64,000 nucleotides of DNA from Sedimentisphaerales bacterium (GCA_028282905.1 JANQGW010000112.1:189-64188); one strand, 5' to 3'; shown: positions 9,754 through 36,706, counted from the first letter of the stretch. The notes: a model not told the origin generated them from the letters alone. Made by a program: numbers and translations.

Positions 9754-11010
9754 ATGGCAGAAGATTTTTACACAATGCAGGAAGTGATGGAAAAACTGCG
9801 CCAATCCGAAGAACAGGTACAGGATTTGGTCAAGCAGGGCAAACTTCGTCAGTACATGGACTCCGGCAATCCTATGTTCAAGACCGAAGACGTCAATGAA
9901 CTGGCCGAGGAAATCGTCGGTATCGACATCTCTTCGACCGGTCTTGACCTGGGAGGTTCGGCCCTGGAACTGGCTGAAACCGGCGATCTTGACTTGGGCG
10001 GAGCAGACCTGGAATCAGCCGAAACCGGCGACGTTGAGGATTTAGTCGGCGACCTGGATCTGGGTGGGGATTTGGAAATCGCTGAAGAAGCTGAAGAAGC
10101 AGTTGGCGATGCGGAAGCAATGGATGCTTCTGAACTGAATCTGGCGGAAACCTCGGAAATTCAGTTGGAACCGGATGAAGAACCTGCTGACAGCCCCGAA
10201 CTGAAAGATCAAACCAGTGAAGGTGGCTTTGGACTGAGCCAAATGGGCGATTTGACCATGGCTGATACCAATGTCGGTACAGTTGGCATCAACATTCTCA
10301 GCGGCACCGAAGATGCTTTTAAGCTGACCGAAGATACGAAAGCCGAAACCATGTCGGCTGACGCCGAAGAGATTGAAGAACTGGAAAGCCTCGATGCCGA
10401 CTCCAATATGGAAAGTTTCGGCAGCGGTTCCGGTCTGCTGGACTTGTCATTACAAGCTGATGATACCTCGCTGGGTGCGGTTTTGGACGATATTCTGCCG
10501 GCTGGTGCTGAAGAGGCCGGCGGCGGAGACCTCCCGGTTGACCAGATTGGCATAGGCGATGAAGCGGAAGACCTGCTAGCCGAGCCGGCCATGGCTGAGG
10601 CAGCGGAACCTGCCGCTGCAGAACCTGCGGCTGCACCGGCCGCAGCCGGTGCTCCGGCGATGCCCGCTCAAAAAATGGTCGCGGTCGCAGAGATTGACCC
10701 TCGCACGAACCTGTTCGGCATTGCGATGTTCCTGCCGCTGGCAGCGATTATTCTGGTCGGTATCATCCTGACCGGTGCGATGCAGGGCATCAACCCGTCA
10801 CTAATGAAAGTTCTGACGGAAAAAGAAATCGGCCAAGTCGGCTTGTTCTGGTACGTGTTGGGCGGTCTGGCCATTTTTGCGGTTCTTTTCTCCCTGTTTG
10901 CTTCAGTCGGCGGTGGCACCGGCGGCGGAACCGGACGGGCAAAAGCTGCGAAAAAGACTAAAAAGCCCAAGGCTAAAAAAGAGAAAAAGCCTAAAAAGAA
11001 GAAAAAATAG
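9754..11010 (+). CDS. Membrane-anchored protein: N-terminal HTH (excisionase/MerR-like), roughly 250-aa polyacidic low-complexity region, two TM helices, lysine-rich tail
   Basis: ATG with AGGAAG 8 nt upstream. The N-terminus reads DFYTMQEVMEKLRQSEEQVQDLVKQGKLRQY. D/E-rich DLDLGG-type repeats follow, then TM segments LFGIAMFLPLAAIILVGIILTG and VGLFWYVLGGLAIFAVLFSLFA, then the tail RAKAAKKTKKPKAKKEKKPKKKKK. Confidence 0.7.
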   Translation: MAEDFYTMQEVMEKLRQSEEQVQDLVKQGKLRQYMDSGNPMFKTEDVNELAEEIVGIDISSTGLDLGGSALELAETGDLDLGGADLESAETGDVEDLVGDLDLGGDLEIAEEAEEAVGDAEAMDASELNLAETSEIQLEPDEEPADSPELKDQTSEGGFGLSQMGDLTMADTNVGTVGINILSGTEDAFKLTEDTKAETMSADAEEIEELESLDADSNMESFGSGSGLLDLSLQADDTSLGAVLDDILPAGAEEAGGGDLPVDQIGIGDEAEDLLAEPAMAEAAEPAAAEPAAAPAAAGAPAMPAQKMVAVAEIDPRTNLFGIAMFLPLAAIILVGIILTGAMQGINPSLMKVLTEKEIGQVGLFWYVLGGLAIFAVLFSLFASVGGGTGGGTGRAKAAKKTKKPKAKKEKKPKKKKK

Positions 11011-11181
11011 GCTTCTTTGCCTGATGGCAACCGTCAAATGTCGGATTAAAAGCGAAATTGAGCCGTTAAACGCATATTTTTTATGCCAAAGGCGGCTTTT
11101 TGCCGACATAACGTCTATGGAATGCAACCGTTTGATGGTGCGAAAATTAAAGGATTGACCTTCGTCAGAAAGGGTATCGTT

Positions 11182-11964
11182 ATGAGCCGGAGCAAATGTT
11201 TAATCACAGTATTGGCATGCACAATGATTCTGTTCACGGTCGGTTGTGAATGCGGACAAAGCGTAAACGACCTGAAAGCCCAAAACCGCATCCAGCAGCA
11301 GCGTATTGCGGATTTGGAAAGTGAATTGGGCTTGTGCAACTCGGAATTACAGCAAAAACTGCAGGACTTGCAGAATCTTTCAGGCACCAGTTCGGCGGAT
11401 ATGGAAGCGAAGAACGCCCTGATCGCAGCATTGGAAGCGGACATCGAAAAGAAAAAAGCGATGATCGAACAGATGAAGGCCCAAATGCTGACGGCTGGCG
11501 CTCCCCTGCCGCCGGAAATGAACATGCTGCTTCAGGAATTCGCCAAAACCAGCGAAATGATCGATTTTGACGAGGCTACCGGGTCATTGAAGTTCAAAAA
11601 CGACCTGCTGTTTACCCCCGGCAGTGACCAGGTGACCGCAAACGCGGCAACATCGCTGAAATCGCTGGCCGGCATTATGACCAGTGCCGAAGCCAAACAA
11701 TTTGACATTGTCATCGTCGGCCATACTGACGATGTGCCGATTAAACGCCCTGCCACCAAGGCAAAGCATCCGACCAACTGGCATCTTTCCGTCCACCGTT
11801 CAATCGGCGTTATGACGGTACTGAACAGCAGCGGCATCGCTTCAGAACGTATGGCCGTTAAGGGCTACGGTGAATTCCGCCCGGTCGCCCCGAACAAGCC
11901 CAACAAAGGCGGCAACCCTGCCAACCGCCGGGTCGAAATCTTTATTCTGCCGGGACAATCTTAA
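11182..11964 (+). CDS. OmpA/MotB-family peptidoglycan-binding lipoprotein with an N-terminal coiled coil
   Basis: Lipobox LFTVGC after MSRSKCLITVLACTMI. The C-terminal OmpA-like domain contains IVIVGHTDDVPI and NRRVEIFI. I prefer the ATG at 11182 over the track start at 11083. Confidence 0.85.
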   Translation: MSRSKCLITVLACTMILFTVGCECGQSVNDLKAQNRIQQQRIADLESELGLCNSELQQKLQDLQNLSGTSSADMEAKNALIAALEADIEKKKAMIEQMKAQMLTAGAPLPPEMNMLLQEFAKTSEMIDFDEATGSLKFKNDLLFTPGSDQVTANAATSLKSLAGIMTSAEAKQFDIVIVGHTDDVPIKRPATKAKHPTNWHLSVHRSIGVMTVLNSSGIASERMAVKGYGEFRPVAPNKPNKGGNPANRRVEIFILPGQS

Positions 11965-20704: not shown

Positions 20705-23041
20705 TCAATGCCAAGACGGGATGCCGATTGAGATAAGTTCAGCCGCAGGAGTTGATTGCTCGACTCGCACTAAGGGCATTCGCAGTTCAGGCGTCATGTG
20801 TGCCATCACAAGCTCATAGCGTTTTAAGTCTTTATTGTATTGAGTGATGATTTTTTGTTTACGATGCGCATAGACAAATCCCAATTCATTCTCCAGTGGT
20901 ATAATTTCAGAAGGCCCTTCTCGTTTTATCCATTTCCCATCCTGCTCCGGAGACAGATGAACAGAATAATACTTGCCCTTCTCTTTTCGGATTTCCATGC
21001 GATAATACGGAAACCATTGCGGCTGGTAGTAACCCAAAAAACCATCGTTTGTTTGCGGGGCCGGTGCCGTTGAATCCAGTATAGATGACGGCTTGTCAAT
21101 CCTTACCATCGGGCGCGGGCCGGTATTATGCGGAGCCTCTGACTCACTGGTGAAATTTTCGGACTGTGCATCGCGGATAATTATAAAGTAATTGCCATCC
21201 GGGCGACAACCGATGGTTGTTCCGATCATACTGGTCTGTAATGCCCATTCCAGACCGCCGGGACATTTTTTGAATGGAATCTCCATGCCTCGACAGACCG
21301 AATAGTAAGTATCCTTAATTTTGAATACCGGGATAATTGTTCCGGGATTGGCGTTTTTACGCTGCGGTTCCTGAATTCGAAAATACCCGGTTAGCGGATC
21401 ATCTTTCGCAGAGACACTTTTGGGGACGATTTTTCCGTCAAGCTCTTCGGGAAAGGTATAGTCCAGCAATTGCAGCTCATACGGTTCGCGATGCCGTAAA
21501 ATACACACGATGACACCACTGTCCAAAACCCAGTATTCGGTGATGTGGCCGGCCCGTTTTTTGAACCAGGTATCGGTCGAGGTAAGCTGCTTGAGGACAA
21601 GATGGTTCGCCTTAAACGTTCCTGCCGGAACTGTGATGACTTCTTTCCCGGCATGCGTGATCTGGATGGCGTAATCGGCAAGTGCTTCCCCTGAATTGTC
21701 CCAATCGTACACATGAAATTCTTTGGACTGGCCCGGTTCAAGATTCAAGCCTCGCAGAAAAATGTTGTCGGCACAATATGAGTCCGGTCGGGTATTTGGA
21801 TTGTAGTAAGCACCGCCGGGAACTGAAAGTTTCTTGTCATCGCAATCGGCCCGCACACCGCGACGGGTCAGCAGCACCTTTTCACCCTGCAGCTCAAGAT
21901 TGATGTTGTATGCCCCATCCTTTCCGGTTTGATAGCTTTTCAGCCGACCGCTGGTGTCACCGGAGGCAAGGTCATAGCTGCCCATCCACAGTAAACGAGC
22001 CAATGCTGTGAGGTTCCCGCCTTCACCCTGTTTTATCCAAAGTTCGCCGGGGGTATCAATGTCACGGTTCCGGCTTCGATGGCGATAGCGGCCGTGGAAA
22101 ATCAGCTTTCCCGGCAAGTTTTCCGCCTTGAACGCGGGATTCTTGATATCTTCTAAGCTGGTAGCGGAATGCTTTGGGCGAGATAATGATTTGAATTCCA
22201 GGTGCCCGTGGTTTTGATTGCTTGTGCTGTCATGGGCAATATCACCCTGACCCTCATCGAATTTCCAATACGCCGCCAATCCAGCAGAATCTGCAGCGAC
22301 CGATTGATTCATGTTTGCCTCGATCTGTTGTTCGGTCCGGGCGACATTCCAGATGCGTACCTCGTCAATCATCCCCTTGAAATATTCATTGCCGAATATG
22401 CCATACCCGATATACAAATCAATCGGTGAATGCCTCAAATCTCCCGGTCTGTGAGTTTGCTTATCAATTAATCTGCCATCCACATAGAAAGCGACATACT
22501 CTTTCGCATAGACTCCTGCAAAATGATGCCATGTGCCTGTTCGCTCAGTATGCAAAACATTGTCCGCGGCGCGAATCGTCCTTGGGCCATTGGTGACACC
22601 GTCAAAACGAATCTGCATTCGCCTGTCACCCTGGTCAGCAGCAAGAAGATAGCCAGGCTTCAAACCGCCGGCCTTTCTCAGCAAGCGGCTGCAATACTTT
22701 TGCGGCCCGTCGATCCATGCCCACAATTCGATAGTCATTTCCGTTTTCGGTTCCAGGGACGGATGATTAGGAACTCGAACAAAGTTACTGACGCCATCAA
22801 ACTCCAACGCATAGCCGCTGGGGCCTTGCTCATCGTCAACAGATATCCATTGCGGCTGGTTGCCTGAAGCTTTATCGACATCAACCTCAGCCATCAATTG
22901 AGCTGCTGTAAGAAAGGTCGATAGCAACAGCCCAATCACCACGAGGCTCAACGTACGCGTCACTTTCCAGATTTCAATTTGAACATTCATGGACTTTCTC
23001 CTTTTTGTCAATGCTCCACGTTTATTCATGACCTCTTTCAT
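20705..23041 (-). CDS. Secreted LamG/concanavalin-A-like lectin-domain protein with a large uncharacterised C-terminal region
   Basis: N-terminal anchor/signal. The segment FDGVSNFVRVPNHPSLEPKTEMTIELWAW...DEVRIWNVART is the typical LamG (Laminin_G_3) pattern. It lies 56 nt downstream of the blaR1-like gene on the same strand. Confidence 0.7.
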   Translation of the reverse strand: MKEVMNKRGALTKRRKSMNVQIEIWKVTRTLSLVVIGLLLSTFLTAAQLMAEVDVDKASGNQPQWISVDDEQGPSGYALEFDGVSNFVRVPNHPSLEPKTEMTIELWAWIDGPQKYCSRLLRKAGGLKPGYLLAADQGDRRMQIRFDGVTNGPRTIRAADNVLHTERTGTWHHFAGVYAKEYVAFYVDGRLIDKQTHRPGDLRHSPIDLYIGYGIFGNEYFKGMIDEVRIWNVARTEQQIEANMNQSVAADSAGLAAYWKFDEGQGDIAHDSTSNQNHGHLEFKSLSRPKHSATSLEDIKNPAFKAENLPGKLIFHGRYRHRSRNRDIDTPGELWIKQGEGGNLTALARLLWMGSYDLASGDTSGRLKSYQTGKDGAYNINLELQGEKVLLTRRGVRADCDDKKLSVPGGAYYNPNTRPDSYCADNIFLRGLNLEPGQSKEFHVYDWDNSGEALADYAIQITHAGKEVITVPAGTFKANHLVLKQLTSTDTWFKKRAGHITEYWVLDSGVIVCILRHREPYELQLLDYTFPEELDGKIVPKSVSAKDDPLTGYFRIQEPQRKNANPGTIIPVFKIKDTYYSVCRGMEIPFKKCPGGLEWALQTSMIGTTIGCRPDGNYFIIIRDAQSENFTSESEAPHNTGPRPMVRIDKPSSILDSTAPAPQTNDGFLGYYQPQWFPYYRMEIRKEKGKYYSVHLSPEQDGKWIKREGPSEIIPLENELGFVYAHRKQKIITQYNKDLKRYELVMAHMTPELRMPLVRVEQSTPAAELISIGIPSWH

Positions 23042-23097
23042 AGAAAATGCCGGCTGTCAAGTATACTTCTTCTATTCCTGACAGCCGGCAAAAACAT

Positions 23098-25863
23098 TTA
23101 TCGTCGAGCTTTATAGTCCTGCCAGAGGTCGAAAATGACTTTCGGGTCGCTCAGCCCCATACCTTCCAGATCCGGGGCGGTCAGTTTGAAATTGCCGTTA
23201 CCCGGCTCGACAAATTCCGGTTCGACAATCACCGCGTCGGGGCTGTCACAGTTTTCCAGATCGGCTTGATTTTTCCAAAAGACGTTTTTACCAAATTTCG
23301 ATCGGATAGGGTCGGACTTGCCTTCTTCCTGATGGATGATAATGCCGCGAGGATTGGAACTGATGACATTATTACTTACGGCCAGCATCGAATACGGTCG
23401 GGCGGCAATGGCCGCGTAGGTCGATTTCAGAATCACATTGTTTTCGACTTTAAACTTACAGGCCGATATGCCGTCGATCCCGCTGGCGTTGCCAATCAAC
23501 AGATTGTTAGTAATCGTGCCGGAACCGGATTTGTTGCCCAGATAGACACCGCGATTGCGATTGTTGATAATCAGATTATCTTTCATCGTCAGCTTCCCGC
23601 CGGTGGTACGAACGGCATGATATTTTGAGCCGGTTATCACGTTTCGCTCAACGGTGGCCTCGGCGCCGTTGTAAAGAATCACACCCTGATGGCCGCAGTC
23701 ACGGATGAAACAATCGAACATTCGCCCCTGAGTGCCCTCACCATAGCAAACGACATAATCAAAGCCGGTGAAATCACAGTCAATCACATCCATTTTGGAA
23801 AAACCCATGGAGCGGATCGCGACCGGGCTGCGCTGCGGATTGCCAAGCGGACGAAACTTACAATCGGTAATAGTTGCTTCAGTATCCTTGACCGCAACCG
23901 CAAAAGGCATTTCATGCCGGTCGCTGGTCGCAAGCTGCCAGTTGATGTAAAGTCCGGAAACTATCACCTTGCCTTTACCGGCAGTGTCAATCATAATCGC
24001 CGGCTCATTAGCGGTGATATTAAAGATAACATCGCCGTGATCCATACAAACCAAATTCATGGGCTTGGTGATCTTTATCGGCTTATCATATGTCCCGGCC
24101 GGCACCGTCAACGTCTTGCCCGGCTTGGTCGCATTGATCATCGCCTGCAAATCGGAGCTGTCCGCCGATGCTGCCATCATGCCCGGTGCCCCTGCCCCCG
24201 GTGCTTCCATTCCCGGCATCATTCCATCCGGGGCACCCGTATCGCTGGACGGACGAATGACCGGACGAATCATCCAGTCGCCGGTATCAAATTCCTCAAA
24301 TCCCTGTCCCGGCAGGCCGGTGTAGGAATTGCCGGAAGCTTCGGCGTCATAATGCACATACACACCCTTTCTCTGCTCAGCGTTAAAACCAAAGCACAGG
24401 TAAAACTGGTCGGGAAGCTGCGTGGTTTTGACACGCATTTTAACCCACTTGGGATTACCGCGTTTGAATGTCCCGTACGGCAATTCAAAGTCCGCAATCA
24501 CTTCCTGGTTGACGTCACACAGCCAGACATGAAATTTTTCTTTTGGCGGCTGGGGATATCCGTAACGTGAGCCGTACAGCATCACCGCCACTATCTCGGA
24601 TTTTTGCTCCGGCTCAAAATAGACCGCGTGCCCGCTGCCGGCAATGCTCTTTTTACCCGCTGACTTACCGTCATCATGGCCAATCGGCGCGGGTCTGGCA
24701 GCCGCCGTTAAAGTCGTTTCCACAATCGGCTCAACGACTTTTTCCACACTTGGTCTGGCGACTGACCTTGCGGACGTAAACGTCGTTGCCGCCAAAATCG
24801 CAATCACAACGAGGATCGGAATGGTCGAGGCCTTCTGGTTTTTGAATTTTGCGATCATGCTCATTCTCCTTTTCAATAGTGATTGATTTTCTGCGATTCC
24901 CGCCATTGCAGGGACGGTTCGCTGCCCAGCAAACCGCTGCAAAAATGCCAGGATCGTCGCTCCATACGCTTTAGGTTCATGCTCTTTTAACGTTGAAAGT
25001 GCCAGTTCGTCGCAGGCCAACTCGCGGTCTGCGTTGATGCGGCTCATCGCGAACCAGACCGCGGGATTGAACCAGTGCAATACCTGCACGACCGCCATCA
25101 GCCAGCCAATCAGGATGTCATGACGTTTGAGATGGGCCAGTTCGTGCAGAAAAACATAGCGAAGCTGATCCGGGGTCATCTCGTTCAGAATGCCGGTCGG
25201 CAGCAGTAAACGCGGCCGCAGGTAGCCGAACAGACACGGTGTTTTGACTTCGTCAGTTTCCACCACACCAACAACCGTTTGCAGGTCCAACTGGCCCTTA
25301 CAGTCCTCCAGCAATTCCAGAATATCCTGTCGCGTCACCAGACGTCGACGCTTGATAATTCGCCACAACCGAAAGTTATTAGCTAATACCCACACGCTCA
25401 GCAGGCCCGCCCCGCCAAGCCACAGGCCGCTAAGCAGCTTTGGCCAGTCCATTGTCGCCACAGCCGGTGATGCCAATTCGACTGAATCAACCGCCGCCGT
25501 AGTGGTTTCCGGCCCGGTTGTTTCAGCCGATGCTGCCGGAGGAAGTGCATCTGTCGTATCAGTAGATGCGGCGACATTAGCATTGGCATTATGCTCCTCT
25601 GCCGTCTGCGGCGATGATAAATACTGTTCCGGCGTGACCTGCCGCGGAATCAGGTTAAAAACACTGAAAGCCGTCTGCACATTCAGCGGCCAGATTAGTC
25701 GTACCAGCAGCACCAGCCACAGCCAATACACCATCCGGCAGCGTAATTTCCCTTTGACCACTATCCGCACCAGCAGAATCATCGCCAACAAAATTGTCCC
25801 GTAAAATGAACTTCGGGCAAGCCATAAAAAGACTTCCTGAAGTGATTGCGGTATCGAAAACAT
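23098..25863 (-). CDS. BlaR1/MecR1-type M56 peptidase sensor fused to a large extracytoplasmic right-handed beta-helix domain
   Basis: N-terminal polytopic M56 domain with the zinc motif HELAHLKRHD. After a further TM there is a roughly 550-aa ectodomain with a Met/Pro/Gly linker and repeated beta-helix-type units (NNVITGS, NNLIINN, NNLLIGN, NNVILKS, NNVISSN). Confidence 0.85.
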   Translation of the reverse strand: MFSIPQSLQEVFLWLARSSFYGTILLAMILLVRIVVKGKLRCRMVYWLWLVLLVRLIWPLNVQTAFSVFNLIPRQVTPEQYLSSPQTAEEHNANANVAASTDTTDALPPAASAETTGPETTTAAVDSVELASPAVATMDWPKLLSGLWLGGAGLLSVWVLANNFRLWRIIKRRRLVTRQDILELLEDCKGQLDLQTVVGVVETDEVKTPCLFGYLRPRLLLPTGILNEMTPDQLRYVFLHELAHLKRHDILIGWLMAVVQVLHWFNPAVWFAMSRINADRELACDELALSTLKEHEPKAYGATILAFLQRFAGQRTVPAMAGIAENQSLLKRRMSMIAKFKNQKASTIPILVVIAILAATTFTSARSVARPSVEKVVEPIVETTLTAAARPAPIGHDDGKSAGKKSIAGSGHAVYFEPEQKSEIVAVMLYGSRYGYPQPPKEKFHVWLCDVNQEVIADFELPYGTFKRGNPKWVKMRVKTTQLPDQFYLCFGFNAEQRKGVYVHYDAEASGNSYTGLPGQGFEEFDTGDWMIRPVIRPSSDTGAPDGMMPGMEAPGAGAPGMMAASADSSDLQAMINATKPGKTLTVPAGTYDKPIKITKPMNLVCMDHGDVIFNITANEPAIMIDTAGKGKVIVSGLYINWQLATSDRHEMPFAVAVKDTEATITDCKFRPLGNPQRSPVAIRSMGFSKMDVIDCDFTGFDYVVCYGEGTQGRMFDCFIRDCGHQGVILYNGAEATVERNVITGSKYHAVRTTGGKLTMKDNLIINNRNRGVYLGNKSGSGTITNNLLIGNASGIDGISACKFKVENNVILKSTYAAIAARPYSMLAVSNNVISSNPRGIIIHQEEGKSDPIRSKFGKNVFWKNQADLENCDSPDAVIVEPEFVEPGNGNFKLTAPDLEGMGLSDPKVIFDLWQDYKARR

Positions 25864-25883
25864 TGATTGTGCTCCTTTCTATT

Positions 25884-26258
25884 CTATGAGCCTTCCTTTT
25901 GATTGAGAATGTCCTTGAGTTCTTCGATCTCTTTTTCTGAAAGCTTTTGGTCCTGCAGAAAAGCCGCCAACATGGGCTTAAGCGCCGCCGCTCCGGCACG
26001 CTCCAACAGCGACTGCGTTTCCTGCCGGACGCACTCATGCTCAGCCACCAGGGGGAAATAGCGATGCTGCCTGCCATCTTTTTCAAAATCGAGCGCGCCC
26101 TTTTTGTGCAGGCGTCCAATCAGCGTGCGAATGGTCTTGGGATTCCAGCCGGAATCGTCCAGCACCTCAACTACTTCATTGGCGGTCCGCGGCGACTTAT
26201 GCCAGAAAACCTTCATGACAGCCCACTCAGCTTCCGTAATGTTCGGCATGGTACTCAT
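25884..26258 (-). CDS. BlaI/MecI/CopY-family transcriptional repressor
   Basis: MSTMPNITEAEWAVMKVFW...TIRTLIGRLHKKGAL is the winged-helix penicillinase-repressor pattern. The ATG at 26258 has GAGGAG upstream, so the track's N-terminal extension to 26336 is rejected. Confidence 0.9.
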   Translation of the reverse strand: MSTMPNITEAEWAVMKVFWHKSPRTANEVVEVLDDSGWNPKTIRTLIGRLHKKGALDFEKDGRQHRYFPLVAEHECVRQETQSLLERAGAAALKPMLAAFLQDQKLSEKEIEELKDILNQKEGS

Positions 26259-26274
26259 AATGACTCCTCTTAAT

Positions 26275-26312
26275 ATTACATCTGTAATATTTCTAATTAT
26301 TACAGCTGTAAT
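26275..26312. promoter_or_regulatory. Twin BlaI-type operator dyads upstream of the blaI-blaR1 operon
   Basis: ATTACATCTGTAAT (26275-26288) and ATTACAGCTGTAAT (26299-26312), each a perfect TACA-N2-TGTA palindrome, lie 17-54 nt upstream of the blaI start. TACA/TGTA dyads are the established BlaI/MecI recognition motif. Confidence 0.7.
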
Positions 26313-26594
26313 CCATAAGTCAACAAGAAAATCCAAACAAAACTTAAATACGCATATCTCATTTCAAATAAAAGACTTAACAACACATTAATTTTAATTT
26401 AAGAATTATTTCGTCTTAAAAAAGCATTTTAATCCATTTGCAACTGCTTTAAACTCAATCAACCATTCAATGGATGACTACAAAATGCAACCACATTTAT
26501 CACAGTGAAATATCCATTTTACAATCAGTAACACTTCGGCTACAATTAGCACAAATTACTTAGATAAAAGTGTTTTGCTTAAGGAGATTTCTTA

Positions 26595-27893
26595 GTGGAG
26601 CGTTCAATGTTAATAGCCAAGCCAGTTATATTATTCCTTTTGTCATGCCTTGTTTTGGTAATTGGATGCAATAACGACGATGGCAATGAAATTTACTATT
26701 CAGTTATCATCGAAAATGAAACAGAGTCTGTCTTGCATGAACTCACCTTGCATGATTGGCCGGGAGTTTCAGGAACGTTTGGCAGAAACAGTGGAATTAC
26801 AAATCCTGTTCCAGACATAATAAGGATTACTTGGAAATCAGCAATTCAGGGTAAAGAAACAGAAGCCGAGGAGTACTTAAAAAAAATTACGCAAGATTTC
26901 AACAAACCTCTAAACAGGACATCAGATAATAGTAGAGGATTCTTAGCATTTGATGAAAGAGAAATATTCCCCACTGATCTATTTAAAACCCACGAGGCAA
27001 CTCTAGTTCTAAAGGATAAAATTCCTCAAAAACCATGTGGTGACATCACAATCTCGTATATTGGTAACGAAGATTTTGAATTAGAATTTCAAAAAGATAA
27101 TCGCGGTGCTACAAACTCTGACATGAAAGATGGAAATGTCACCATTAAAGACGGCATATTAGATCTAAGTTTCTCAAAGATTACTGACAAAGGATTGGAT
27201 AGCTTTAAAAACACTGAACAAGTTAAGATATTAAATCTTACAGGAACTACTATTTCTGACCCAGGGCTTAAACACCTTTCTTCATATCCAAATCTTAAAG
27301 CAGCAGACTTAAAATATTTGCAGATATCAGGAAAAGGATTTGAAAATTTCAAGTCAGATAAGTTAGAATACTTGAACTTAGAGCAAAGCACCATAGAAAA
27401 TCAATACTTGGATAATTTATCAAATTATAGAAACCTTGAAATCCTAATATTGATCAGAACAGACATCTCTGATATTTCAGGAATCTCAAATCTCAAATCA
27501 CTTCAGATTCTGAATTTGGCTGCGTGCCCAATCTCTGATGATGGCTTAAAAAATATAGGACAGTTGAAAAACTTAGAACAACTTACACTTGTTCAAAACA
27601 ATATTTCTGATAGCGGAATAAAGTACTTAACAGAACTTGAAAATTTAAAATCACTCCGTTTGGGAGCAAATAATATTACAGACTCTGCTGTACAAAAACT
27701 CTCAATAATGCCAAGTTTGCTTTACCTTGAACTGTCCGGTACAAACATTACTGACAAAGCCGTAGAATATCTCTTAAAATTTCCAAAATTAGAATCGGTC
27801 AATTTACGTTCAACAACATTGTCTGTTGAAAGCCTGAAGAAATTAAAGCAGCAACGCCCCAATTTGAAAATACTTTCATGGGAGGAAATTTAA
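26595..27893 (+). CDS. Leucine-rich-repeat (LRR) lipoprotein
   Basis: Lipobox LVIGC. The C-terminal half holds about 10 tandem 24-aa LRR units (LxxLxLxxTxISDxGLKxLxx). A GTG start at 26595 sits 8 nt after AAGGAG. The gene is markedly AT-rich compared with its neighbours. Confidence 0.85.
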   Translation: MERSMLIAKPVILFLLSCLVLVIGCNNDDGNEIYYSVIIENETESVLHELTLHDWPGVSGTFGRNSGITNPVPDIIRITWKSAIQGKETEAEEYLKKITQDFNKPLNRTSDNSRGFLAFDEREIFPTDLFKTHEATLVLKDKIPQKPCGDITISYIGNEDFELEFQKDNRGATNSDMKDGNVTIKDGILDLSFSKITDKGLDSFKNTEQVKILNLTGTTISDPGLKHLSSYPNLKAADLKYLQISGKGFENFKSDKLEYLNLEQSTIENQYLDNLSNYRNLEILILIRTDISDISGISNLKSLQILNLAACPISDDGLKNIGQLKNLEQLTLVQNNISDSGIKYLTELENLKSLRLGANNITDSAVQKLSIMPSLLYLELSGTNITDKAVEYLLKFPKLESVNLRSTTLSVESLKKLKQQRPNLKILSWEEI

Positions 27894-28349
27894 TTACTCG
27901 GCCAGAACAGCCCAGTCGAGGGTTTCGGCGTTGGAATTTGAGATACCGGTCAGGACGTGTTTGACCTGTCCGAACGTGACGGCTTTATCGCATCGCAGGC
28001 GGACGGTTTTATCCGTTGCGCCCTCTTTTCCCAGTGATTCGTCAATCGCCGCGGTCATCAGACGGGCAAGATCATCACCGGTGACATTGCCCAGCGGCTC
28101 ACTGCCGACGGCATAGACGGCACCGCCGTTTTCGGCCATAATCGTGATCGTCAGCGGCTCTTTTTGGTCAACCGGGTCTTTTTGAGCGGATGCAATCTCG
28201 TCGGGTACCTCAACGCGAAACTGCTCGGCGGCGATGAACTGGCAGACCAGCATAAAGAAGATGATCAGCAAAAAGACCACATCAATAATCGGGGTCATGT
28301 CGAATGACTCGGCCTCAAACGAACGCTTTTTGTTCCAAAAACCAAGCAT
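27894..28349 (-). CDS. exbD: ExbD/TolR-family biopolymer transport protein
   Basis: The N-terminal FDMTPIIDVVFLLIIFFML anchor containing the conserved Asp, and 151 aa in length. It starts 3 nt after the exbB stop. Confidence 0.9.
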   Translation of the reverse strand: MLGFWNKKRSFEAESFDMTPIIDVVFLLIIFFMLVCQFIAAEQFRVEVPDEIASAQKDPVDQKEPLTITIMAENGGAVYAVGSEPLGNVTGDDLARLMTAAIDESLGKEGATDKTVRLRCDKAVTFGQVKHVLTGISNSNAETLDWAVLAE

Positions 28350-28352
28350 TTG

Positions 28353-29240
28353 TTATTCCGCCGCTTTGGCCGCGGGCTGCGGCTCGTTTTTGCGTTTGGC
28401 TATACGCGGCTTAGGCGTCTGGGACTTGAGCCGCTTTTGTTTTCGCCGGATGAATGTGCCTTTGGGCTGCTGCGGAACCTTTGCCTGGTTCGGTTTAGCA
28501 GCGGTCGCCTGCTGCTGAGGTTGGGGCTGGGCAACAACTTTAAAGCCCTTGGCATTGCCGTTGGCAAAAATGCGCGCCAGTACCGCCTCGGCTTCCAGCG
28601 ACGCCTCGCTGACAAATGCTTCGATTCGTGTCTGGAACACGCCGTACAAAAATAATGCGGGTATCGCCACCAGCAGGCCCCAGAAGGTCGTCACTAATGC
28701 GATGGAAATCTTATCGGCGAGTAATTCATAACGCTGTCCTTCGGTGCCCTGTCCCAGCAGGTGAAAAGCCCCGATCATGCCGAAGACCGTTCCGAACAGT
28801 CCCACCATCGGCGCGACCGAACCGATGATCTGGCACCACTGAGCCTTTCGCATCAGGTGCATGCCGTTTTCGGCCAGCGACTCGGCAGTCAACTGGCGAA
28901 TCATCTCGGACGAGGCTCCCATCTGGCGGCCCTGATCCATCGCCCGCAACAGTGCCCGGCTCAGCAAATCTTTTCGCCCGACAAGTTTATTGGACAATGA
29001 CGCCGGTCCGTTTCGTAAAGCATGCGTGGCAATCTCAGTGGCAATGCCGGCCGGCAGTAGCCGCTTACGGCGAATCGTCACCAGTAAATCCAGTGCCAGA
29101 TAGACAATAATAATCGACATTGGCAGCAGGATAAACCAGACAATCGGCCCGCCCTGGACAAAGAACTGCCGGAAAAATGTCTGCGCCGCCGAATCATCGG
29201 CCGCGGCTAAAACAGAATAAGCTATCCAACCTATATCCAC
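28353..29240 (-). CDS. exbB: MotA/TolQ/ExbB proton-channel protein with a Lys/Pro/Gln-rich C-terminal tail of about 70 aa
   Basis: Core motif IIGSVAPMVGLFGTVFGMIGAF...ALVTTFWGLLVAIPAL. GTG start with GAGG 6 nt upstream. The tail reads QPQPQQQATAAKPNQAKVPQQPKG..KRKNEPQPAAKAAE. Confidence 0.9.
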   Translation of the reverse strand: MDIGWIAYSVLAAADDSAAQTFFRQFFVQGGPIVWFILLPMSIIIVYLALDLLVTIRRKRLLPAGIATEIATHALRNGPASLSNKLVGRKDLLSRALLRAMDQGRQMGASSEMIRQLTAESLAENGMHLMRKAQWCQIIGSVAPMVGLFGTVFGMIGAFHLLGQGTEGQRYELLADKISIALVTTFWGLLVAIPALFLYGVFQTRIEAFVSEASLEAEAVLARIFANGNAKGFKVVAQPQPQQQATAAKPNQAKVPQQPKGTFIRRKQKRLKSQTPKPRIAKRKNEPQPAAKAAE

Positions 29241-29265
29241 ACAAACCTCAAACTATTCATCATTT

Positions 29266-29331
29266 GTCACCCCGGCCCCCGAGCCGGGGTACAGAGCGTT
29301 GATATTTGGATGCCGACAGGAGCGGCATGAC
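29266..29331. repeat. REP-like double hairpin element between the TonB-like gene and exbB
   Basis: GTCACCCCGGCCCCCGAGCCGGGGTACAG on the plus strand and GTCATGCCGCTCCTGTCGGCATCCAAA on the minus strand. The reverse complement aligns along its length with the 14978-15044 element. Confidence 0.65.
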
Positions 29332-29359
29332 AAAACAAAGAAAATCAACTCACTCATAG

Positions 29360-30244
29360 CTACTTCACTTCCACAAACTCGCCGCCGGTCACTGCCGCCA
29401 GCACATCCAGCATTTTACGGTCGTTTTCCTGCGGCCAGAATCCTATGGTATGCAGAACCACCGCGGGTGCAAGCATTTTCCGGCGGGTCTCGATTTTTTC
29501 GACAAATTCCAGTGCCCCGTCGGCATCGAGGTCAAATCCGTCCGTCAAAAAATAAATCACCTCGGGCGACAGATTATCAGCATCACGCAGCCGCATCGCA
29601 CGATCAAGCGCGTGGGCGGCATCGGTACTGCCGCCTGGACGGATGCGTTTTATCAGTTCCAATGCTTCGGATTTGGCAATCACACTGGCGGCCTGAAGTT
29701 TTCCTTCGCCGGTCATAAGAATCTGCCGGCCTTCGGTAAAAAACAGGACCGTAAACGCCTGTTGAGAATTGAGCTTTAAAATCGACTCCTTGAGCTGACT
29801 CTTAACGCGATACATCTGGCCGTACATACTGCCCGAACAGTCCACCACATAACAAATTCGCTGCACAATACTTTTCTGGCCGAAAAACTCCACCTCATGG
29901 GCCACCGGCTCCGTAAATGCTGGTGACGGCTCAATGGGTTCTGTGGTTTCAGGTTGCGGTTCGGGAATCGGCGTTTCATCTGCAACTAACGGCTTGGGCT
30001 GTGGTTTTTCCGGTTCGACCACCTTTTCAATCGGCTTGATTTTCGGCTTGGGTTTGGGCGTAGGCGTCTCAACGGCCTTTTCAATCATCTGCATGGATAA
30101 CCCGCTGCGTGCCGCTGCGGCATCCGCCTGTCGGGCCGACAATTTCACCCCGGTAAAGACCGCCAGCGCAACGGCATGGACAGTCACTGAAATCACCAGT
30201 GCCCAGTACCGTACCCGTCCTTTGTCGGCTTCAAGCTGTCTCAT
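29360..30244 (-). CDS. TonB-like energy-transducer N-terminus (SxxxH anchor plus Pro-rich spacer) fused to a periplasmic vWA/MIDAS domain
   Basis: TM YWALVISVTVHAVALAVFTGV carries S-x3-H as in E. coli TonB (LLSVCIHGAVV). The spacer reads TPKPKPKIKPIEKVVEPEKPQPKP..PIPEPQPETTEP. The vWA domain has DCSGSM, STD and LTDG MIDAS elements. Start is ATG 30244 (AGGGG upstream) or TTG 30265. Confidence 0.7.
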   Translation of the reverse strand: MRQLEADKGRVRYWALVISVTVHAVALAVFTGVKLSARQADAAAARSGLSMQMIEKAVETPTPKPKPKIKPIEKVVEPEKPQPKPLVADETPIPEPQPETTEPIEPSPAFTEPVAHEVEFFGQKSIVQRICYVVDCSGSMYGQMYRVKSQLKESILKLNSQQAFTVLFFTEGRQILMTGEGKLQAASVIAKSEALELIKRIRPGGSTDAAHALDRAMRLRDADNLSPEVIYFLTDGFDLDADGALEFVEKIETRRKMLAPAVVLHTIGFWPQENDRKMLDVLAAVTGGEFVEVK

Positions 30245-30295
30245 ATCCCCTGCCTTCTTGTACAAAATTCAAACAAGCCGCAAGCCGTCGCCGGG

Positions 30296-31405
30296 TTAAT
30301 CATAAATGATGATTTCCGAAACGCCTGCCCGCAGCAGATTATAGACTTCCTTAACATCCTCGTTGTGCAGACGCACACACCCGCGTGACGACCGGGTTCC
30401 GATGGACTCCGGTTCTTTGGTGCCGTGCAATGCGAAACCGGTCCGTTTCTCGGTATTGATGTCCAGCCCTTCAATCGCAATCCAGCGATCACCCAGCGGG
30501 TAATCCGGATCGCTGCCGGAATATACTCTGCCGGTGTCTGGGTCGGTCCACTGGGGTCGGTTCGGATTTTTCCCACCGGATTTAACGCGCCAGCGGCCCG
30601 GTGGCGTTTCATGGCCTTCCTTGCCGATGCCCACCTTGTACGTCTTGACATAAGTGCCCTGCAGATATAAGTCCATCGTAAAGGTGCTTTTGTAAACGAC
30701 CGCGTTAAACGGCCCTTTGATAACTTTGATCTTCTGGCCGGCCTGCAGTGCCTCTGGGCGCGGAAGACCGTTAATCTCCTGCAGAATTTCATAGGGTACT
30801 TTGAATCGCGAAGCGATCGTGCTCAAATAATCGCCCGGCTTGACGAGATAGTATTCGCTCAAGTTATCCGACTCGAACACTTCTCGGCCGAACAGCCATT
30901 TATCGGCCAGCTTGGTCATCTTTGTTTTGATCTGCGCCCGCAGCGAGTCACTTAACCGCTTGTCCAGGGCACCATTAAGCAAATCGCGCGTCGCAATAAT
31001 CTTGCCGGCCTTGTCCAGTTCAATCGCCCGCTCAACCAGGGCACGTGCTTCATCGCTGCTTTCTACCGTCGGCGTATCGACGGTCGGTGTAGGCGGATCC
31101 GGTGTTGGTTCCGGTTGCGGTTCTACCGGTGTCACTTCCTCTGGTTCCGGTGTCGGTTCCGGCTGAGGCTCCGGCGTTTCCGTAGATTCATCGTCGGCGT
31201 CACCATCGTCTCCAGACATGATCTCGCCCACGGTTCGTTCTTCACTGCCGGTTTCCGGTGCTGGCTGCGGCTCATCGCCTTTGTAAAGCCTTGTGACGAT
31301 GATAATGCCCACAATCAACACAATCAGGATGATAATAATATTTCGCAATTGACGCTGTTTGCCCTGCTTGTGGGTGCTGTAGGGTTTATACTTTCGTTTG
31401 CTCAC
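30296..31405 (-). CDS. LysM-domain L,D-transpeptidase (YkuD family)
   Basis: LysM segment YLVKPGDYLSTIASRFKVPYEILQEINGL and YkuD catalytic motif HGTKEPESIGTRSSRGCVRL. I prefer the GTG at 31405 (GGGAGG 6 nt upstream). It overlaps the upstream stop as GTGA. Confidence 0.88.
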   Translation of the reverse strand: MSKRKYKPYSTHKQGKQRQLRNIIIILIVLIVGIIIVTRLYKGDEPQPAPETGSEERTVGEIMSGDDGDADDESTETPEPQPEPTPEPEEVTPVEPQPEPTPDPPTPTVDTPTVESSDEARALVERAIELDKAGKIIATRDLLNGALDKRLSDSLRAQIKTKMTKLADKWLFGREVFESDNLSEYYLVKPGDYLSTIASRFKVPYEILQEINGLPRPEALQAGQKIKVIKGPFNAVVYKSTFTMDLYLQGTYVKTYKVGIGKEGHETPPGRWRVKSGGKNPNRPQWTDPDTGRVYSGSDPDYPLGDRWIAIEGLDINTEKRTGFALHGTKEPESIGTRSSRGCVRLHNEDVKEVYNLLRAGVSEIIIYD

Positions 31406-31992
31406 GACAAACCTCCCTGTTTTATGTCTATACAATTAATCATCTCTTGTTCGGTCACAACGGCATGAACGGGAACATCCGTCTCATCATGCGGAACCGC
31501 GTCGCATAACTGCTGCGAAAATGCCACACCCCAGCGGGCGGCTCGCAGGTCATGGCCGGCAAAAAAGCGGTCGTAATAGGCCCCACCGCGGCCAAGGCGA
31601 TTGCCGTCTCTGTCAAAGCCCAACCCCGGCGTAATCACCAGGTCGATATCCTCAAACGGCACTGGCGTGCCGTTAGTCGGATTGCGAAGGCCCTTTTGAT
31701 CGGTGCTCAGCCCCGTGTCCAGCGATGTCAGCTCCACGGGTATCATGTGCCGCTGTTCCCAGGAAACCTTTGGCACCGCCACGGTCTTTCCCTGCTGCCA
31801 TGCGTGCAAAATCAGCGGGGTCGTGTCCACCTCATGCGGCAGTGACAGATACACCATCACCACCGCTGCCTCATGAAAAACCTCTGAATCCAGAATATGT
31901 CGGCAAATCGCCTTGCTGGCGGAAATGCGTTCATCAGTGCTCATTTTCAGGAGCCGGGTCTTAATGTCATGCCGCAATGCGACTTTATCCAT
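31402..31992 (-). CDS. 5-formyltetrahydrofolate cyclo-ligase
   Basis: 196 aa, with ITPGLGFDRDGNRLGRGGAYYDRFF, the MTHFS family signature. Confidence 0.88.
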   Translation of the reverse strand: MDKVALRHDIKTRLLKMSTDERISASKAICRHILDSEVFHEAAVVMVYLSLPHEVDTTPLILHAWQQGKTVAVPKVSWEQRHMIPVELTSLDTGLSTDQKGLRNPTNGTPVPFEDIDLVITPGLGFDRDGNRLGRGGAYYDRFFAGHDLRAARWGVAFSQQLCDAVPHDETDVPVHAVVTEQEMINCIDIKQGGLS

Positions 31993-32024
31993 ACTAAAAA
32001 CCTCTATAAATAGAATAATTCCGA

Positions 32025-33380
32025 TTAACTGCGCCGAAGCTGTTCTACCTGATTTCGCAGTTTTTGTAAATATTCGGCCACCAATTTTTCTCTTCCTATA
32101 TTTTTCGGCTGGTAATAGGGTTTTTCGAGATTTTTTCCGAGATAATCCTGCGGAATGTAGCCTGTGGGGCTTTTATGCGGGTATTGATAGCCTTCGCCGT
32201 GGCCAAGCTTTTTGGCGCCGGCGTAGTGAGCGTCTCTCAGATGGGCAGGCACGGGAATGGTTCGGCCGTTATTGACATCGCTGCAGGCCTGCCAAATGGC
32301 ATTGGCACAGGCGTTGGATTTCGGCGCGCAGGCAATATAGATCGCCGCCTGCGCCAGCGGAAGCTGAGCCTCCGGAAATCCGACAAATTCGGCGATTTGG
32401 ACTGCGGAAGCCGTCAATATCGTCGCCATCGGGTCAGCGTTTCCCACATCCTCAGCTGCGCAAACCGCGATTCTTCGGGCGATAAACCGCAAATCCTCGC
32501 CTCCAACGATCATTCGAGCCAGCCAATAGACCGTCGCGTCCGGGTCCGAACCCCGCATTGACTTTTGCAGCGCACTGGCCAGGTCGTAATGCGTATCGCC
32601 GGAGCCGTCGTACTGGATAGCTTTTCTCTGGACCGATTCGCGAGCCACCTCGAGCGTCAGGGCGATTTTTTCGTCGTCAGCCCCTTTGACCTGTGACTTA
32701 ACCGCCACTTCCAGCGCCGTCAGCGCCCGGCGGGCATCACCATCACAAATTTCAGCTAAAAACTGCAATGCTTCCAGGTCTGCGCTGATATTCATCTTGC
32801 CAAGGCCTTTTTCGGTGTCAGCCAAAGCTCGATTTAAAAGCCCTAAAATATCCTTAACACTTAACGCCTCAAACGCAAACACGCTGCTGCGGCTAATGAG
32901 CGGCGAATTCACACTGAAAAACGGGTTTTCCGTTGTTGCCCCGATCAGTGTGACAATGCCGTTTTCCACGTCATCCAGCAAAACATCTTGCTGAGCGCGG
33001 TTAAAACGGTGGATTTCATCGATAAACAGCAATGTCCGGGCACCGTTTGTGATAAGCCGGTCTTTAGCGGAGGCGATAATTTCGCGAACGTCCTTAACGG
33101 AGGCCGCGGGAGCACTCAAATAGTGGAATTTCGCCTCAATCGCCCCTGCGACAATGCGAGCCAGCGTGGTTTTGCCCACACCCGGCGGGCCGTAAAAAAT
33201 CAGGCTGCTGACGGTACCCGCCTCCAGCATCCGCCGAAGCAGCTTGCCCTCACCCACAAAATGCCGCTGTCCGGCAAATTCGTCCAGCGTTGCCGGGCGC
33301 ATCCGAACCGCCAGCGGCGCATGAGAGGCCAGCGTCTTCCGCTCGCCCGCACTGAACAAATTGTCCCCAAATTTCGCCAT
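32025..33380 (-). CDS. rarA: Replication-associated recombination protein A (AAA+ ATPase)
   Basis: Walker A GPPGVGKTT, LFIDEIHRFNRAQQD, and the C-terminal MgsA domain (SMRGSDPDATVYWLARM, YQYPH). Confidence 0.95.
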   Translation of the reverse strand: MAKFGDNLFSAGERKTLASHAPLAVRMRPATLDEFAGQRHFVGEGKLLRRMLEAGTVSSLIFYGPPGVGKTTLARIVAGAIEAKFHYLSAPAASVKDVREIIASAKDRLITNGARTLLFIDEIHRFNRAQQDVLLDDVENGIVTLIGATTENPFFSVNSPLISRSSVFAFEALSVKDILGLLNRALADTEKGLGKMNISADLEALQFLAEICDGDARRALTALEVAVKSQVKGADDEKIALTLEVARESVQRKAIQYDGSGDTHYDLASALQKSMRGSDPDATVYWLARMIVGGEDLRFIARRIAVCAAEDVGNADPMATILTASAVQIAEFVGFPEAQLPLAQAAIYIACAPKSNACANAIWQACSDVNNGRTIPVPAHLRDAHYAGAKKLGHGEGYQYPHKSPTGYIPQDYLGKNLEKPYYQPKNIGREKLVAEYLQKLRNQVEQLRRS

Positions 33381-33471
33381 AGTCGGGCATTATAATCGAA
33401 GCGGCTGCCAAAGTCCACCGGCAATGAAACAGACAAAACAACCACCGAAATCACGGAATACCACAGAAAAA

Positions 33472-33503
33472 ATTCCTACATTCCTGTATTCCTATATTCT
33501 TAT
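33472..33503 (+). repeat. Four tandem 8-mers ATTCCTAC-ATTCCTGT-ATTCCTAT-ATTCTTAT upstream of greA
   Basis: Read directly from the sequence. A GGAATAC at 33455-33461 is complementary to GTATTCC at 33486-33492. An inverted copy of the first two and a half units lies just after greA (34142-34161). Confidence 0.6.
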
Positions 33504-33565
33504 CAACTTCATTTTGGACAAATCGAATCGCAGAACCACTGTGACAATGAATTCATCAAAAAGTA

Positions 33566-33594
33566 TTTACGAAACCGTAATGATTTGTTATAGT
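33566..33594 (+). promoter_or_regulatory. Candidate sigma70 promoter for greA
   Basis: TTTACG, a 17-nt spacer, then TATAGT, about 60 nt upstream of the greA ATG. Confidence 0.5.
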
Positions 33595-33652
33595 ACAACT
33601 TTTTAGCAGAGAACAAAGTCAGACAGATGTAAGTTAATGGAGAATTGTCCGA

Positions 33653-34135
33653 ATGCATGACATTATGCCAATTTCTGAAACAGGCCACGCAAAACTGAAA
33701 GAAGAGCTGGTCAAGCTGGAAAAGGAAGCCGTCGAACTGCGAATCCGGGTCGAAGAGGCTCGCCAGCAAGGTGATTTAAGAGAAAACGGTGAATATATTT
33801 ACGGCCGACAGAACCTCGGTTTTGTCGAGGGCCGCATGGGTGAAATCCGCGGCAAGCTGAACTTTTCAAAGGCCGTCGATTGCACACAGGTGCCGTGTGA
33901 CAAAGCGGCGTTTGGTACAATCGTAACCCTGCTGAATCTTGACACGCAGAACAAAGTTGTCTTTCAATTGCTGGGACCGCATGATGCAGATCTGACCGAT
34001 GACAGCATTTCCATTTGCTCACCCATCGGTGAAGCGATTGTGGACCATGTCGTCGGCGATGAAATTTCAGCAATGGTCCCCCGCGGCGAAATGCGTTTCG
34101 AACTGCTCGAAATCAATCCGTCCGAAATTAAGTAG
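33653..34135 (+). CDS. greA: Transcription elongation factor GreA
   Basis: 160 aa with an N-terminal coiled coil (GHAKLKEELVKLEKE...ARQQGDLRENGEY, acidic finger tip) and a C-terminal FKBP-like domain (SPIGEAIVDHVVGDE). Confidence 0.9.
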   Translation: MHDIMPISETGHAKLKEELVKLEKEAVELRIRVEEARQQGDLRENGEYIYGRQNLGFVEGRMGEIRGKLNFSKAVDCTQVPCDKAAFGTIVTLLNLDTQNKVVFQLLGPHDADLTDDSISICSPIGEAIVDHVVGDEISAMVPRGEMRFELLEINPSEIK

Positions 34136-34141
34136 CTGCGA

Positions 34142-34161
34142 ATACAGAATGTAGGAATACG
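34142..34161 (-). repeat. Inverted copy of the ATTCCT repeat block, 6 nt after the greA stop
   Basis: The reverse complement of 34141-34170 reads GAATTCCCCCGTATTCCTACATTCTGTATT. It matches ATTCCTACATTCCTGTATT (33472-33490) apart from a 1-nt deletion. Confidence 0.6.
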
Positions 34162-34217
34162 GGGGAATTCTCAATGAAATCCCGCGCATTCCATGCTTAA
34201 AATGGTATTGCCTATAA

Positions 34218-34257
34218 TAAAAGGCCGCCAGAACTTTCAGATTCTGACGGCCTTTTT
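34218..34257. terminator. Bidirectional rho-independent terminator between convergent greA and icd
   Basis: Long stem AGGCCGCCAGAA/TTCTGACGGCCT (one mismatch), flanked by an A-run on the left and a T-run on the right. Confidence 0.8.
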
Positions 34258-34273
34258 ATTTGTCGTTTGTTAT

Positions 34274-36706
<2,433 letters not shown>

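Follow-up and report, generated by a model that had tools for sequence, protein, structure and literature searches.

Within a 64,000-nt stretch of DNA from a Sedimentisphaerales bacterium (GCA_028282905.1, JANQGW010000112.1:189-64188), referred to below as the window, we analysed four genes on the minus strand, which encode an L,D-transpeptidase, a membrane-anchored protein with a domain of the von Willebrand factor A (vWA) type, and the two subunits of a motor of the TolQ/TolR or ExbB/ExbD type. A first-pass annotation, made by a model from the sequence alone, had described an ExbB-ExbD motor paired with a TonB-like protein that ends in a vWA domain with a metal ion-dependent adhesion site (MIDAS). 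All the open reading frames (ORFs) it described are present, with exbB and exbD on the same strand as the vWA gene, and they match the Pfam families VWA, MotA_ExbB, ExbD, and LysM with YkuD. In the order of transcription, the locus comprises:

30296-31405, minus strand: gene for a LysM and YkuD L,D-transpeptidase (Pfam), in an ORF open to 31435
29360-30244, minus strand: gene for a protein of 294 aa plus stop with a transmembrane (TM) helix, a Pro-rich linker and a vWA domain (Pfam VWA), in an ORF open to 30265
29241-29359, minus strand: spacer of 119 nt between the vWA gene and exbB, with two hairpins
28353-29240, minus strand: gene for a TolQ/ExbB-type pentameric motor subunit (MotA_ExbB)
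27894-28349, minus strand: gene for a TolR/ExbD-type subunit (ExbD), in single copy

The vWA gene is taken to start at the ATG at 30244, and not at the upstream TTG, because its homologues begin with MRQL or MKQL. Numbered from this start, the parts of the vWA protein, together with one further segment in the product of exbB, are the following:

30143-30208, minus strand: N-terminal TM helix, residues 13-34, with S19-x3-H23 and a conserved face of A15, S19, H23, L27 and F30
30071-30106, minus strand: conserved island, residues 47-58, a candidate 'motor box' with the pattern P-x-[AV]-x-[IV]-x-x-[VI]
29897-30070, minus strand: Pro/Lys/Glu-rich spacer, residues 59-116, with 17 Pro, presumed to span the periplasm
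29363-29896, minus strand: vWA domain, residues 117-294, with a complete MIDAS and preceded by the conserved EVEFFGQKS
28356-28565, minus strand: C-terminal tail of the ExbB homologue, residues 226-295, rich in Lys, Arg, Pro and Gln and presumed cytoplasmic

A search of 5.8 billion proteins gave 876 relatives of the vWA protein, and an exhaustive search with a profile through 1.84 billion cluster representatives gave 159 clusters at 50% identity with E ≤ 1e-30. The anchor motif that had been noted in the TM helix, S-x3-H, is present as S19-x3-H23 and proves to be a property of the whole family. Among the close full-length homologues (n = 112) His is found in 100% and Ser in 99%, with Ser19, His23 and Leu27 all at 99-100%, while 117 of the 130 representatives of full-length size fit the pattern S-x3-H-x3-[LIVMF]. 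The aligned representatives (n = 125, 50% clustering) have His23 in 123/123 and Ser19 in 117/123, with Thr in 4. The conservation maxima of the helix (A15, S19, H23, L27 and F30) recur with a periodicity of 90-100 degrees, which places the conserved residues on one helical face. The helix, drawn over residues 8-39 in the AlphaFold2 (AF2) model, carries F30 at H+7 and K34 at H+11, so that the Leu and Ser positions of the SHLS motif are matched only in part; lower conservation at both positions has also been noted for Ton systems (PMC12215075). Counted from the cytoplasmic Arg, Ser and His are as deep in the helix as they are in TonB and TolA. The net charge of the flanks, taken over 110 homologues, is +2.5 on the N-terminal side versus +0.6 on the C-terminal side, which favours an N-in topology with the linker and the vWA domain in the periplasm; a cytoplasmic vWA domain, a possibility raised in the first-pass annotation, is not what the charges predict.

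The head of the protein was assigned from several lines of comparison. As anticipated for a search of the C-terminus against vWA profiles, Pfam VWA_3, VWA_2 and VWA match residues 136-295 of the ORF 29360-30265 (minus strand), with E values from 6e-9 to 1e-7. The metal-site motifs that had been read as DCSGSM, STD and LTDG were all recovered and correspond to D135-C-S137-G-S139, T207 and T234-D235-G236. In 28 diverse sequences no variation occurs at D135, S139 and T234-D235-G236, while S137 is conserved in at least 90%, and T207 is found in 25/28, with Ala in the other 3. The AF2 model has a predicted local distance difference test (pLDDT) score of 93-98 per 10-residue block over residues 120-294, and the top matches of Foldseek against the PDB are ligand-binding vWA domains of the MIDAS type, namely ITIH1, CaV alpha2delta, ANTXR2/CMG2 and BatB, with E values down to 4e-11. 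The family carries a vWA head with a complete predicted MIDAS metal site. A subclade of four relatives (loci L018, L019, L032 and L037) has D-G-S-G-S in place of D-C-S-G-S.

No match to the TonB_C domain was found in the vWA protein, whose C-terminal half is all vWA by Pfam, NCBIfam and Foldseek. Since a vWA/MIDAS C-terminus stands in place of the TonB C-terminal domain, strand pairing with a TonB box is not expected. The NCBIfam TonB model does match the protein with an E value of 3.8e-6, over the low-complexity spacer and with a family cut-off of 315 bits, a match that is probably driven by the Pro/Lys/Glu composition of this region. We discarded such matches as evidence, as the Pro-rich linker of the transpeptidase, which has no S/H motif, also matches a TonB model (E 2e-4).

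Anchor and head are joined by residues 40-116, which are predicted to be disordered (AF2 pLDDT 41-59) and include, at residues 59-116, the spacer of TonB style that was noted at the outset from its Pro, Lys and Glu content. Close to the membrane, this otherwise variable linker contains an island in which positions 47, 49, 51 and 54 stand out by a higher information content from a background of about 0.5-0.8 bits. The island has alternating hydrophobic residues at 47-54, lies 24-31 residues past the His, and is modelled by AF2 at low confidence with a short helix at 52-56. In TonB and HasB, a disordered segment proximal to the membrane binds ExbD and is inserted between the ExbD protomers (PMC10771500), and the equivalent segment has been named the 'motor box' (PMC12204202). 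Because the position of the island fits both the ExbD-binding region of TonB and HasB and the published motor box, we infer that it is a candidate motor box, which may bind the ExbD/TolR dimer.

The motor genes belong to the families named in the first-pass annotation, MotA_ExbB and ExbD, but their scores are nearer to TolQ and TolR than to the ExbB and ExbD of its label. The product of 28353-29240 matches Pfam MotA_ExbB with an E value of 1.4e-26; in NCBIfam, TolQ (6.4e-19) comes ahead of ExbB (1e-14), and when its profile is compared with the PDB, TolQ (6.5e-19) again comes ahead of ExbB (2e-13), with full-length alignment to TolQ structures. The product of 27894-28349 matches Pfam ExbD (PF02472) with 6.9e-16, and in NCBIfam it gives TolR at 3.4e-11 and ExbD at 5.8e-9. 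The residues conserved in the ExbB homologue are S42 in TM1, T151 in TM2, and T184/T185 and P194 in TM3, and the invariant S42 and P194 align on the TM1 Ser and the TM3 Pro of TolQ, respectively. Cryo-EM structures from E. coli have the Ser and His of TonB or TolA touching a Ser and a Trp in TM1 of ExbB or TolQ, with the Trp touching the Pro of TM3 (PMC12215075). The TM Asp of the ExbD homologue, D23, is conserved in at least 95% of sequences, and the pore Thr residues of the ExbB homologue are kept, both of which fit a predicted working motor. The unusual tail of the ExbB homologue, given earlier as about 70 aa rich in Lys, Pro and Gln, has indeed 70 aa, with 17 Lys and Arg and 20 Pro and Gln; in relatives, its length varies with lineage from 2 to 78 aa, with a median of 40. 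The long-tailed relatives have in common a basic motif, KGTF[IL]RRKQKR, within this variable tail.

The fourth gene encodes what is, by its domains and motifs, a predicted membrane-anchored LysM-YkuD L,D-transpeptidase, with Pfam matches to YkuD (PF03734, 1e-20) and LysM (1.6e-12). In the protein, a TM helix leads through a linker that is acidic, Pro-rich and disordered to a three-helix module, after which come LysM and YkuD. The predicted catalytic residues H327 and C343, in the motif HG...SxGC[IV]R, are invariant in 29 homologues. The AF2 model has pLDDT >90 over most of residues 120-369, with the three-helix module confidently placed, and its best match in the PDB is B. subtilis YkuD.

The genes are closely packed. 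The GTG start of the transpeptidase gene at 31405 overlaps the TGA stop (31404-31402) of the preceding gene as GTGA, as had been described, and 3 nt separate the stop of exbB from the start of exbD; the spacings estimated across the loci of relatives are short throughout. The GTG starts of exbB (29240) and of the transpeptidase gene (31405) have a near-identical ribosome-binding context, GAGGTTTGT-GTG and GGAGGTTTGTC-GTG. Of the REP-like hairpin pair that had been placed between the vWA gene and exbB, the two hairpins exist (29269-29290 and 29310-29328), but the REP-like label was dropped: the GC hairpin occurs once in the 64-kb window with no second copy, the spacer folds no better than its shuffles (z = -0.99), and neither hairpin is found in the corresponding spacer of L003 or L011, two of the relatives. 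Scans of 26000-34500 with Rfam and with consensus motifs gave nothing exceeding chance.

To place these genes in a wider context, one genome per species was scanned, which gave 56 distinct loci with a member of the family, nearly all labelled Phycisphaerae, Anaerohalosphaeraceae, Sedimentisphaerales or unclassified Planctomycetota. Four of these are uninformative for the motor genes, three being cut by a contig end and the fourth (L008) having exbB after about 2 kb, followed by the contig end. In 48 of the 52 informative genomes exbB-exbD lies directly downstream of the vWA gene, a linkage that the first-pass annotation had singled out for verification, and the transpeptidase gene lies directly upstream of it at 56/56 loci. 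Two further co-directional genes upstream are syntenic in most relatives and are not part of the module:

31402-31992, minus strand: 5-formyltetrahydrofolate (5-FTHF) cyclo-ligase, housekeeping
32025-33380, minus strand: MgsA/RarA, housekeeping

Since these two genes are also usually present upstream, conserved gene order alone is weak evidence. At locus L056, glycosyltransferase genes stand in place of MgsA and the cyclo-ligase, and the series of transpeptidase, vWA, ExbB and ExbD is intact with abutting junctions. A four-gene module, consisting of an L,D-transpeptidase, a vWA transducer, a TolQ/ExbB and a TolR/ExbD, is conserved across the Phycisphaerae. Two bridging forms were also found. 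In L060, a more distant relative, a Gly-rich linker joins an S-x3-H helix to a vWA domain with a MIDAS, and genes for ExbB and for two ExbD proteins come next; L059 has a protein similar to that of L060 with a divergent TPR gene upstream. Neither in the window nor at the 56 loci is a TonB-dependent transporter or other outer-membrane barrel gene linked to the family. The cluster contains no other transducer gene and no TolA domain III, TolB, Pal or CpoB, neither MoxR nor DUF58, the partners in Bat operons, is encoded in the window or at related loci, and no Glt-like or other motility genes occur near the cluster at any locus.

Some observations around the cluster are recorded here in their own right. 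In six relatives (L027, L038, L042, L052, L054 and L055) a second ExbD-like gene lies as an orphan 4-7 kb downstream of the cluster, and no ExbB-like gene was detected nearby; this orphan is not in the present window. At L042 (11806-14583, minus strand), the only one of these loci that was inspected, the orphan adjoins genes for a 756-aa protein and for ClpX. In the window, a gene for a leucine-rich-repeat protein (26595-27893, plus strand), in a stretch of 37% GC versus about 52% nearby, runs towards exbD, and the stop codons of the two genes are directly adjacent on opposite strands. This gene, together with those for a BlaI repressor, a BlaR1-M56/beta-helix protein and a LamG protein (20705-26336, minus strand), occupies the site of cold-shock and peptidase S8 genes in relatives, and the stretch is probably an insertion. 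At 9754-11964 (plus strand), a gene encodes a 418-aa protein that has a weak helix-turn-helix start and continues through about 300 aa of highly acidic repeats to two C-terminal TM helices and a tail of poly-Lys. The next gene encodes a lipoprotein-like coiled-coil protein with an OmpA domain (Pfam OmpA 1.2e-13, ZorB/MotB-like 1.4e-15), which, judged from these matches, may bind peptidoglycan in the manner of Pal or MotB. The phylum has been reported to have no Pal; the Planctomycetes are listed without pal in the catalogue of PMC12204202, citing Witwinowski et al.

The idea of a distinct output class for such motors, put forward in the first-pass annotation, is already in print: vWA force transducers encoded beside tolQ/tolR-like genes have been predicted from sequence and structure models, with function unknown (PMC12204202, Mol Biol Evol 2025). 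We found no other paper on vWA force transducers in the literature that could be searched. In the published proteins, an SHLS-type TM helix is accompanied by a motor box, by a domain II that is disordered or Pro-rich, and by a C-terminal vWA domain; they range over Proteobacteria, Planctomycetes, Verrucomicrobia, Bacteroidetes and Rhodothermaeota, and their multimer models put the His at the TonB/TolA site (PMC12204202). The family described here is a member of this known and solely predicted class, with which it has in common a Ser-x3-His TM helix, a disordered region with a conserved membrane-proximal element, a spacer and a C-terminal vWA domain, as well as the adjacency of the vWA gene to tolQ/tolR-like genes and the occurrence in the Planctomycetes-Verrucomicrobia-Chlamydiae (PVC) group, including Planctomycetes.

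With the prototypes, transducers 1 and 2 of Tichowtungia aerotolerans, the family has in common a 'V-x-FFG-x-KS' lead-in to the vWA domain. When the family profile was compared with Tichowtungia transducer 2 by hhalign, the match over the vWA domain had a probability of 74% and an E value of 2.9e-5, while BLASTP of the vWA protein against the same transducer was not significant, which points to a distant relationship only. The Tichowtungia proteins have 474-476 aa and a large insertion, and they lack a MIDAS (D-A-N-K-L, versus D-C-S-G-S here). The gene layout also differs: the published PVC arrangement runs from a TPR gene through tolQ and two different tolR genes to the vWA gene, whereas here a transpeptidase gene is followed by the vWA gene, tolQ/exbB and one tolR/exbD, with the vWA gene upstream of the motor genes and with no TPR gene. 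The link to a transpeptidase is absent from the published account, in which the word 'transpeptidase' has 0 occurrences (PMC12204202). That study describes a second family with a TM helix and a vWA domain, encoded with tolQ only, which is likewise a membrane-tethered vWA protein beside a TolQ-like gene. Its helix has no Ser/His but a TolR-like TM Asp, and it replaces TolR. The present helix, YWALVISVTVHAVALAVFTGV, contains no Asp, and a separate ExbD with its Asp is encoded, for which reasons we rejected an assignment to the TolR-replacing family.

The module was also compared with the classical systems. With TonB proteins (E. coli TonB, HasB and FusB) it has in common a single N-in TM anchor, the Ser-x3-His motif and a Pro/Lys/Glu-rich spacer, and the gene likewise adjoins those of a MotA_ExbB/ExbD-family motor with a TM Asp and pore Thr residues. 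TonB differs in having the TonB C-terminal domain where a vWA/MIDAS domain is found here, there is no detectable homology of the TM segments, and no linked TonB-dependent transporter was seen. As regards TolA with TolQ-TolR, it is models and structures of TolQ/TolR that give the motor subunits their best scores, and the Ser-x3-His of the anchor is found in both. Tol, with Pal and CpoB, is coupled to cell-wall remodelling, which the link to a peptidoglycan-active protein recalls; in contrast to Tol-Pal, none of the TolA domain III, TolB, Pal and CpoB components belongs to the present cluster.

Taken together, we consider it reasonably probable that the module is a proton-driven motor of the TolQR/ExbBD type, whose TonB/TolA-like arm, bearing a metal-dependent vWA head, holds or pulls a partner in the wall or outer membrane alongside the transpeptidase. 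At the level of sequence, the comparisons above support the first-pass interpretation: they show the domain identities, the conservation of the motifs, the fold, the likely topology and the synteny, and from these the docking on the motor, the transduction of force, the ligand and the physiological role are inferred. The first-pass annotation had named three refuting outcomes, namely S/H positions that are not conserved in orthologues, a cytoplasmic vWA domain and a lack of linkage to exbBD; each was checked, and none of them refutes the interpretation. In the mechanism that we propose, TolQ/ExbB and TolR/ExbD would form a proton-driven motor of the 5:2 type in the inner membrane, and the N-terminal helix of the 294-aa protein would dock outside this motor through its Ser-x3-His face, as TonB and TolA do. 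The short conserved strand after the membrane would probably engage the periplasmic dimer of TolR/ExbD, and the Pro-rich spacer would take the vWA domain across the periplasm, where the MIDAS may bind an acidic residue of its partner through a divalent cation. Motor activity would then pull or reposition the bound partner. Because the LysM-YkuD transpeptidase accompanies the module everywhere, the target most likely lies in the peptidoglycan/outer-membrane layer, with a role in Tol-like envelope maintenance or tethering and not in nutrient import.

Import in the manner of Ton was nevertheless considered, in which case the vWA head would engage an outer-membrane transporter or its cargo, the motor would open it, and the transpeptidase would be a mere neighbour. 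The Pro/Lys/Glu spacer is of the TonB style and not helical as in E. coli TolA (PMC12204202), and FusB, a TonB homologue, is described as binding a protein substrate directly, both of which agree with this explanation. We regard it as quite improbable, given that no transporter or barrel gene is linked to the family in the window or at the 56 loci, that the motor scores nearer to TolQ/TolR than to ExbB/ExbD, and that the sole constant partner is a peptidoglycan enzyme. Another possibility is surface adhesion or gliding, with the transducer coupling the motor to an adhesin system, as speculated by the authors of PMC12204202 by analogy with Agl-Glt/CglB of Myxococcus. Myxococcus has a TolQR-like motor, TonB-like Glt proteins and the MIDAS vWA adhesin CglB (PMC9946355), so that there too a TolQR-type motor ultimately acts on a MIDAS vWA domain. 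In that organism, however, it is a separate lipoprotein of the outer membrane that carries the vWA domain, not an inner-membrane transducer, and the TonB-like proteins keep TonB-type C-termini, whereas here the vWA domain is fused to an inner-membrane anchor. The absence of motility genes near the cluster at any of the loci, where it stands among housekeeping genes in nearly all genomes, makes this explanation very improbable.

A number of points weigh against the motor-driven arm. A profile of residues 1-62 matched nothing in the PDB up to an E value of 10, TonB and TolA included; an alignment of the TM segment with these two families had been proposed as a check in the first-pass annotation. 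The likeness to TonB is one of motif and architecture, not of statistically demonstrable homology, and the case for a TonB/TolA-type anchor, as read from the sequence, rests on a motif of four-residue scale. Where ExbB of E. coli has the Trp in contact with TonB His20, the present homologue has Val46, next to a conserved Tyr47. Four genomes (L018, L019, L032 and L037) lack exbBD in the 7-8 kb downstream and yet keep Ser-x3-His and the transpeptidase; in these, the motor genes must be located elsewhere or shared. The linkage to the transpeptidase could partly reflect gene order inherited within one class, and for vWA transducers as a class no deletion phenotypes are known (PMC12204202). Without motor coupling, the protein would act, like BatA/BatB, as a membrane-tethered vWA scaffold in the periplasm or as a binder dependent on metal, with Ser and His serving in oligomerisation or otherwise, and with the TolQR/ExbBD motor serving another transducer. 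The undetectable similarity of the TM profile, the four genomes just mentioned and the presence of BatB among the structural matches favour this explanation, but it is hard to explain otherwise why a single-pass anchor should keep an invariant His and, four residues away on the same helical face, a near-invariant Ser, both at a depth equal to that in TonB and TolA, and the cluster has no other transducer gene for the motor to serve. MoxR and DUF58 are also missing, and an identity as a BatA/BatB aerotolerance-type protein was rejected for the lack of the MoxR ATPase and the DUF58 protein in the operon context. We judge a passive scaffold to be unlikely and retain the motor-driven arm with a metal-dependent head as the preferred explanation.

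A possible extension of the motor-driven arm is that in the Phycisphaerae, a lineage reported to have no Pal, the module would serve as a functional stand-in for Tol-Pal and Lpp, in which an arm driven by the proton motive force would grip a protein of the outer membrane or the wall through a MIDAS whose hold is strengthened by tension, and the transpeptidase would fix the gripped protein to peptidoglycan or remodel the latter. This is a speculative and rather unlikely proposal, and, if true, it would couple the tethering of the envelope to membrane energy.

To our knowledge, Ton and Tol were for long the sole known routes by which motors of the TolQR/ExbBD type reach the outer cell layers. 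A metal-dependent vWA domain would be a third head group and would widen what these motors can pull. What the present analysis adds to the concept of vWA transducers is a family that is class-wide, with about 159 clusters at 50% identity, and a four-gene module that extends throughout the Phycisphaerae, with an intact MIDAS and an L,D-transpeptidase as constant partner. The intact MIDAS and the constant partnership with a peptidoglycan enzyme lead to a testable hypothesis, namely that these transducers have a role in the cell envelope and act on a ligand bound in a metal-dependent manner.

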